64,000 nucleotides of DNA, from assembly GCF_044324785.1 (NCBI RefSeq), contig NZ_CP172127.1; one strand, written 5' to 3'. Both the position numbers and the translations under genes were made by a program. Source of the DNA: Escherichia coli (lineage in GTDB: Bacteria; Pseudomonadota; Gammaproteobacteria; Enterobacterales; Enterobacteriaceae). Shown one piece after another: positions 12,006 to 12,289 of the stretch (positions are counted from its first letter, which is position 1; each line of letters opens with the position of its first letter). The notes under the pieces were generated by a model. That model saw nothing but the letters and a program-made list of their open reading frames with translations. It was not told the origin of the DNA and searched no databases.

Positions 12006-12289
12006 TACTGCTCCTGAGATATTAACAGGAGTAAGTGTAGACGATGGTAAATGAATTTTGTGGGGCAGAGTTTTTGCGGGGAAGTATTTTGTTGGTAAAA
12101 ATATTATCAACTTCATCTGAGCGAGAATTATTCTACTATTTTCCGAGCTGCATTCATTTTTTGTATTTTTTATTTTTAGAAAATAACAGTTCTCAAAGCT
12201 TAATCACCTCACTATTAATTGTATTTCAAACCAATAATCGCACTCCATTTTCTCTTTTTAAAAAATATAAACACTGTTAAAACAAATAT

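Follow-up and report, generated by a model that had tools for sequence, protein, structure and literature searches.

An IS-free, two-layer Rhs polymorphic-toxin island between ybfA and ybgA of Escherichia coli, very probably made by C-terminal displacement

Introduction

The rhsC locus of Escherichia coli has been known since the 1990s to vary between strains. In K-12 MG1655 the genes between rhsC and ybgA follow the order rhsC–ybfB–ybfO (pseudogene)–ybfC–ybfQ–ybfL (pseudogene)–ybfD–ybgA. The stretch of E. coli DNA analysed here, 64,000 nucleotides long and referred to as the window, holds a different set of genes between the same two markers. What are these genes, and how did they come to replace or precede those of K-12?

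The original prediction for this interval set the K-12 gene set, in agreement with the MG1655 order, against an island in which rhsC is followed by one immunity ORF, one orphan cassette, one signal-peptide ORF and an AT-rich spacer. All of these elements are present. The ybfA–ybgA interval is very probably an IS-free, two-layer Rhs polymorphic-toxin island made by C-terminal displacement. [quoted passage not shown] 2011, PMC3150448).

Organisation of the ybfA–ybgA interval

Relative to the usual K-12 orientation the window is reversed; on its minus strand the order is ybfA (18400–18606), rhsC (14005–18156), a 167-aa ORF (13505–14008), an orphan Rhs fragment of 267 aa (12649–13452), a 124-aa ORF (12290–12664, or to 12676 for a 128-aa product starting at an upstream GTG), a spacer, ybgA (11496–12005) and phr (10081–11499). 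To the right of the island, conserved genes begin with ybgA (DUF1722; Pfam PF08349, E = 1e-34), which is annotated at 510 bp in strains 4621, 1190 and K-12; a longer ybgA ORF reaches 12116, which is probably not the true start. Positions 12006–12289 are exactly the intergenic spacer, 284 bp long, bounded by the ATG of ybgA (at 12005 on the minus strand) and by the stop of the 124-aa ORF. Alignment with K-12, strain 4621 and strain 1190 divides this spacer into a 57-bp ybgA leader on the minus strand that is common to K-12 (12006–12062) and an AT-rich part that K-12 does not have (12063–12289).

Base composition varies strongly across the locus. The rhs core is 62% GC, the tips are 39–41%, and the immunity genes and spacers are 28–33%; the whole of 12006–12289 is 29.9% GC and its island-side part, 12063–12289, 28%, compared with 51.6% for the window as a whole. 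The contrast by which Rhs loci are recognised, a GC-rich core against AT-rich tip and downstream DNA, is therefore seen here as 62% versus 28–41%. A promoter and terminator scan of 11900–14100 found promoter-like sites to be no commoner than in shuffled sequence, and in fact fewer. Within the window, no vgrG, hcp or PAAR secretion genes adjoin rhsC.

The main rhsC and its putative immunity gene

The 1383-aa product of rhsC comprises DUF6531, 11 RHS-repeat stretches, the RHS core, the motif DPQGL and, at about residues 1251–1383, an Ntox16 tip. It scores 2,628 bits against the RHS_core equivalog NF041261 (cut-off 2,000), matches PF05593 at 2.9e-68 over the 11 stretches, and also matches TIGR03696. 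The Ntox16 model PF15523 scores 44.2 bits on the whole of RhsC and 49.6 bits on the tip alone, against a Pfam gathering threshold of 25. Residues 1–1250 are 95.2% identical to those of K-12 RhsC, and beyond DPQGL the two tips are unrelated. By its match to the core equivalog, and by a DPxGL-ended core with a strain-variable tip, rhsC is an Rhs element. The comparative-genomic survey of Zhang et al. 2012 (PMC3482391) gives no more for Ntox16 than an alpha-helical domain and the motifs R and [DNE]xxH.

The start of the 167-aa ORF overlaps the rhsC stop by 4 bp, and its product has no signal peptide. It falls below threshold against DUF6714 (23.8–24.4 bits, where 27 are needed), and its exact sequence is found on at least 1,000 contigs. 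From its position and overlap, the 167-aa ORF is a putative cytoplasmic immunity protein for the Ntox16 tip. By analogy with other Rhs systems, RhsC may enclose the Ntox16 tip and deliver it to neighbouring bacteria, with the 167-aa protein guarding the producer.

The orphan cassette

The orphan matches Rhs models over its first 120 residues only, ending at DPLGL where the main gene has DPQGL, and continues as a tip of 147 residues. Gene callers start it four codons later, giving a 263-aa product. The last 147 residues have no sequence match in Pfam, NCBIfam or the PDB. A word-indexed homologue search with the tip (12649–13089, minus strand) returned only 5 matches, and an exhaustive representative search was therefore used; this recovered a family of 825 clusters at 50% identity (E < 1e-3), for which there is no Pfam model. 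The domain is always C-terminal and is frequently borne by RHS-repeat proteins. In an alignment of 42 diverse members, residues N23, C24, C80, H104 and R107 are invariant and C60, C140 and C144 nearly so. The family is marked by the motifs NNCYSYA and DYHWYRQD and by four conserved cysteines, which could form disulfides.

An AlphaFold2 model of the tip (pLDDT 92.6) places C24 at the start of a helix (residues 24–29) and H104 on a strand (residues 102–108). As modelled, the tip would thus show the traits of clan CA, a cysteine at a helix N-terminus and a histidine on a β-strand, and these two residues may be catalytic. Sequence and profile searches of the PDB gave chance matches only, and a Foldseek search of the PDB gave no significant match.

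The 124-aa ORF overlaps the orphan stop by 16 bp at its start and matches no Pfam or NCBIfam family. Inspection by eye, rather than by a signal-peptide predictor, reads its N-terminus as a Sec-type signal of 19 residues ending before ET. The same gene lies directly downstream of a full-length Rhs with the orphan's tip in 40 complete genomes, strain 1190 among them, and its exact sequence occurs on 452 contigs. The 124-aa ORF is thus a putative exported immunity protein for the orphan tip. Downstream of two distant tip homologues, one gene product has, again on inspection by eye, a signal-like N-terminus (L014) and the other has several hydrophobic segments, as in a multi-pass membrane protein (L015). 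Neither partner is homologous to the 124-aa ORF, so the family has no common immunity family, only common export signals.

An exported partner would fit the logic of periplasm-acting effectors of the Tae/Tai kind. The type VI amidase effectors Tse1, Tae3 and Tae4, and CHAP/NlpC-P60 hydrolases, have the papain-like fold that is predicted for the orphan tip, and the immunity proteins of Tae/Tai systems are periplasmic, with an export signal on the partner as here; the comparison covers the orphan tip only. Together, the papain-like model, the conserved cysteines and the exported or membrane-bound partners suggest an envelope-acting cysteine hydrolase. It is possible, and proposed here tentatively, that the orphan tip represents an uncharacterised, widespread family of Rhs-borne toxins that attack either the peptidoglycan or the lipid of the envelope from the periplasmic side. 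An envelope-acting Rhs cargo would be unusual, because the toxins carried in Rhs shells are, in the usual description, ones that act in the cytoplasm (PMC12994826).

Direct repeats and the displacement of the older tip

The main gene and the orphan share a direct repeat of 271 bp. Copy A (14467–14737, minus strand) is the 3′ end of the intact rhs core. Copy B (13147–13417, minus strand), the last 271 bp of an rhs core, heads the orphan. Comparison of the two shows 93% identity and a start-to-start spacing of 1,320 bp.

Strain 1190 and 39 other complete genomes have a single full-length Rhs with the window's orphan tip, and the 124-aa gene, the spacer and ybgA come after it in that order. Window positions 4000–13417 and 14467–22000 are colinear with strain 1190 positions 2–9418 and 9148–16664; the window therefore has exactly one extra unit, 13418–14466 together with one repeat copy. 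The stretch missing from strain 1190 (13418–14466, minus strand) consists of an 87-bp intergenic piece, the 167-aa gene and the region coding for the Ntox16 tip. The displacing unit of 1,320 bp is thus a core fragment, the Ntox16 tip and its immunity gene, and strain 1190 is exactly without it. A repeat-flanked unit and a comparison genome lacking exactly one unit are what C-terminal displacement leaves behind. Furthermore, the single repeat of strain 1190 is a chimera that matches copy B towards the tip and copy A towards the core, and the switch falls between about 13198 and 13258 in copy-B coordinates. Such a chimeric repeat is the signature of one homologous crossover, and the published displacement model (PMC2935791) leads one to expect it when a circular unit of core fragment, tip and immunity gene enters the locus.

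From these features, it is proposed that the oldest layer of the island is the one adjoining ybgA, made up of the papain-like tip, the exported 124-aa immunity gene and the AT-rich spacer. The 1,320-bp unit, carrying a 271-bp core fragment, the Ntox16 tip and the 167-aa immunity gene, would have entered the resident rhsC core by recombination within its final 271 bp. The Ntox16 tip would thereby have become the expressed end of RhsC, and the older tip would have been shunted downstream as an orphan headed by the duplicated core fragment. By analogy, the orphan pair may serve as standing immunity against strains that fire the papain-like tip, and the orphan may also be a reserve toxin that could be re-attached to the core by recombination between the 271-bp repeats.

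Other genomes extend the window into a nested series of constant order. One module is present in strain 1190 and the 39 other genomes, two in the window and in contigs L006/L019, L021 and L023, and three in L011–L013. In the three-module contigs the main gene has a different tip, paired with a DUF6258 immunity gene. Next comes Ntox16 as an orphan headed by a 235-bp core fragment, and after it the papain-like orphan with the 124-aa gene, then the spacer and ybgA. As the papain-like layer is always the most distal, it is taken to be the oldest. This order of layers is robust; the polarity of the window and strain 1190 as a pair is not.

The reverse polarity would make the two-module state of the window the older one, with strain 1190-type loci arising by deletion between the 271-bp repeats and consequent re-attachment of the orphan tip. 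The single repeat of strain 1190 is exactly the recombinant that such a deletion is expected to yield, and the tip and immunity segment is near-identical in the two loci while their flanks are about 2% apart. The route has, moreover, been reported from experiment for orphan Rhs toxins of Salmonella (Koskiniemi 2014). However, insertion leaves the same repeat pattern, and the stacks of one, two and three modules with the papain-like layer always distal fit stepwise addition. Strain 1190-type loci and the window lineage are also not close relatives (97.7–98.1% identity). Deletion is accordingly the less likely direction, though one that keeps an appreciable share of the probability.

The orphan tip of the window differs from that of strain 1190 at 0 of 444 nucleotides, and the segment 12025–13236 differs at only 4 sites, against about 2% in the flanks. 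Such near-identity within diverged flanks points to a recent exchange between lineages rather than simple vertical descent.

Displacement of the papain-like tip by the Ntox16 unit, the reading preferred here, gives an arrangement that differs in nothing essential from the published displaced orphan modules (PMC2935791, PMC3150448). In those modules, as in the window, an intact gene is followed by a core fragment with its tip and immunity gene, a GC-rich core contrasts with AT-rich tips, the orphan tip occurs on a full-length Rhs in another strain, and a direct repeat of core sequence flanks the inserted unit. The window is an unusually clean case, with an uninserted counterpart, a series of one, two and three layers, and IS-eroded derivatives all at hand.

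A second comparison is offered by Salmonella Typhimurium, in which one intact rhs is likewise followed by one orphan with recombinable core homology. Re-attachment of the orphan Rhs tip to the main rhs by recombination is reported there as an experimental result (Koskiniemi et al. 2014; PMC7043789). The Salmonella locus lies in SPI-6 beside a type VI secretion system, whereas that of the window has no adjacent secretion system. In Salmonella, orphan activation and toxin–antitoxin-like activity were shown experimentally.

Distribution among genomes

None of 5,426 complete RefSeq E. coli genomes holds the whole arrangement; the best coverage is 89% for 11400–18800 and 81% for the stretch spanning the boundary of the orphan with the 167-aa gene. 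A K-12-like set is present in about half of them (2,752 of 5,426). The main rhsC with the 167-aa gene and a truncated orphan copy is found in 281 complete genomes, and the orphan tip with the 124-aa gene and spacer in 40.

It might be supposed from these figures that the island is unique to its source strain, as no complete RefSeq genome holds it whole and an exact-product look-up returned no record of the 1383-aa RhsC or of the 267-aa orphan ORF. Uniqueness is nevertheless very improbable and is contradicted by further assemblies. An identical layout is present in GCA_053151395.1 (99.905% identity, gapless over 14,792 bp) and in GCA_964055045.1 (99.55%). The window layout also occurs in an ENA metagenome contig (99.88%) and in 11 similar places besides, and GCA_037978695.1 matches at 99.99% over the 8.9 kb in common. 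The exact 263-aa orphan product is on 82 contigs, labelled E. coli and once E. coli O22, and the RhsC of the window differs from that of GCA_053151395.1 by 14 substitutions, all in the repeated core. Thus, the original prediction of a strain-specific island holds as to rarity and fails as to uniqueness: the arrangement is a rare, lineage-level variant of a hypervariable locus, built of modules found elsewhere.

Over 14.8 kb, all 14 mismatches between the window and GCA_053151395.1 lie within the repeated rhsC core (15472–17721), with 0 in the 11 kb outside it, which suggests gene conversion among rhs paralogues or polishing errors in the repeat. The housekeeping DNA at 19000–43000 (kdp, nag, glnS and others) is about 95–98% identical to K-12 and reaches at best 98.2% identity among the 5,426 complete RefSeq genomes; the source therefore belongs to an E. 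coli lineage that has been little sampled. L004, L007 and L010 carry a form of the island riddled with insertion sequences, and the 90%-identity clusters of its proteins include Shigella-labelled sequences.

Comparison with the K-12 RhsC element

Alignment to MG1655 and to other E. coli genomes confirms that the gene content of the island is not that of K-12. Homology with K-12 breaks off at 12062, a point 57 bp upstream of the ybgA start codon, and restarts at about 14416–14425, inside the rhs core; between 12062 and about 14416, only the 271-bp core repeat matches K-12. Counterparts of K-12 ybfB, ybfO, ybfC, ybfQ, ybfL and ybfD are absent between ybfA and ybgA of the window. H-repeat or IS-like sequence, which the original prediction had reported as not visible, was sought by a tblastn search with K-12 YbfD, and the best match in the entire 64-kb window had E = 2.3. 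Likewise, the window has no DNA homology to ybfQ, ybfL or ybfD, and thus no H-repeat of the K-12 type. Since the difference in gene content was checked by alignment, chance is not at issue.

The K-12 RhsC element occupies the same ybfA–ybgA site, with the closely similar core described above, and is built on the same plan, in which the main gene and the orphan are each accompanied by a small ORF. Neither the two tips nor the two small ORFs are related to those of the window. K-12 has ISAs1/H-repeat copies where the window has none, and the window keeps a 227-bp spacer and a distal papain-like module that are absent in K-12. It is proposed that the K-12 lineage received other tips, one on rhsC with ybfB and one on ybfO with ybfC, and that its ISAs1/H-repeat copies (ybfL, ybfD) would have removed the distal layer and the spacer.

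Relative to K-12, the island is shorter and all of the genes from ybfB through ybfD are missing from it, as they would be from a K-12-type RhsC element that had simply lost them; alignment refutes such a history, which has almost no probability left, because 12063–14424 is not in K-12 save for the core repeat, the Ntox16 tip is unrelated to the K-12 RhsC tip, and no loss of DNA could supply tips, immunity genes and a spacer that are new.

Rhs cores are multi-copy and some short-read contigs link the Ntox16 tail at 14507 to three different upstream partners, yet misassembly of the repeated core is just as improbable an explanation of the arrangement, given that independent assemblies, including contigs of 4.9 Mb and 5.7 Mb, show the complete layout without gaps at 99.5–99.9% and that both orphan junctions are separately present in complete genomes. 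The public contigs with the 14507 fusions (L018, L020 = L009, L022 and L025) join the tail to the rhsC 5′ end, to nikR (the rhsB neighbour) or to yibF (the rhsA neighbour). These junctions reflect either repeat collapse in short-read assemblies or genuine recombination between rhs loci.

Three further differences from K-12 lie elsewhere in the window. At 26687–26698, kdpE is followed almost directly by pgm, and about 5.7 kb of K-12 (715364–721057: ybfP, ybfG, ybfI, potE, speF and speFL) has no counterpart. The tRNA array at 44642–45124 has five genes (Met, Leu, Gln-UUG, Met, Gln-CUG) where K-12 has seven, one tRNA-Gln of each anticodon being missing. At 52504–52508, the K-12 IS5D insertion between gltI and lnt is absent and its flanks are joined directly.

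The ybgA-proximal spacer

The AT-rich part of the spacer, 12063–12289, is present in 377 of the 5,426 complete genomes at 95–99% identity, with one copy per genome. Spacer-bearing genomes therefore far outnumber the 40 in which the distal module is complete. Apart from its distal end, the island of strain 789 resembles that of K-12 (rhsC, ybfB, a ybfO-like orphan, ybfC, ybfQ and one ISAs1), and homology to the window is unbroken over 9000–12421; this stretch takes in the spacer and 132 bp at the 3′ end of the 124-aa gene, and an ISAs1 end adjoins it. The spacer is missing from K-12, whose second ISAs1 copy, ybfD, takes the place that the rest of this DNA, as far as 12062, would fill. Strain 4621 and 280 further complete genomes agree with the window in the main rhsC, the 167-aa gene and the orphan as far as 12872, where ybfD interrupts the orphan; homology returns at 12062.

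The structure of strain 789 indicates that K-12-type islands once had the same distal module and that an ISAs1 copy truncated it. As judged from these breakpoints, the spacer appears to be the old ybgA-proximal end of the rhsC locus, rather than a gene or island debris. The window, in turn, shows a form of the locus free of the ISAs1 copies by which the distal end is truncated or replaced in strain 789, strain 4621 and K-12.

A 78-aa plus-strand ORF within the spacer (12044–12280) was considered as a gene; it is AT-rich and has no Pfam match, and was treated as spurious. An Rfam search over 11400–18800 gave only sub-threshold chance matches of the eukaryotic snoRNA type, and no RNA element in the spacer. 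In the ybgA leader, a hairpin with a 6-bp stem (12011–12016 and 12026–12031) and a 9-nt loop holds the ybgA Shine–Dalgarno sequence in its 3′ arm. The minus-strand RNA of 12006–12040 folds at −11 kcal/mol (z = −2.4). Among strains the stem is conserved and the loop has two alleles, with five clustered differences at 12018–12024.

Significance

The finding is real and ordinary: variation of this sort is familiar, the locus is known to be hypervariable, and public assemblies already contain the layout. The window adds one more variant of the locus, explained by the model published in 2009–2014. Its value is chiefly for teaching, since the uninserted, two-layer, three-layer and IS-eroded forms, K-12 among them, can be aligned base by base; the alignable forms show the K-12 H-repeats occupying the place of the oldest layer and ybgA-proximal spacer of other strains.

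The sole part that might repay experiments is the papain-like Rhs tip with its exported putative immunity protein. More broadly, the set of toxins and immunity proteins encoded at the locus is a predictor of which E. coli strains could act against, or withstand, one another.
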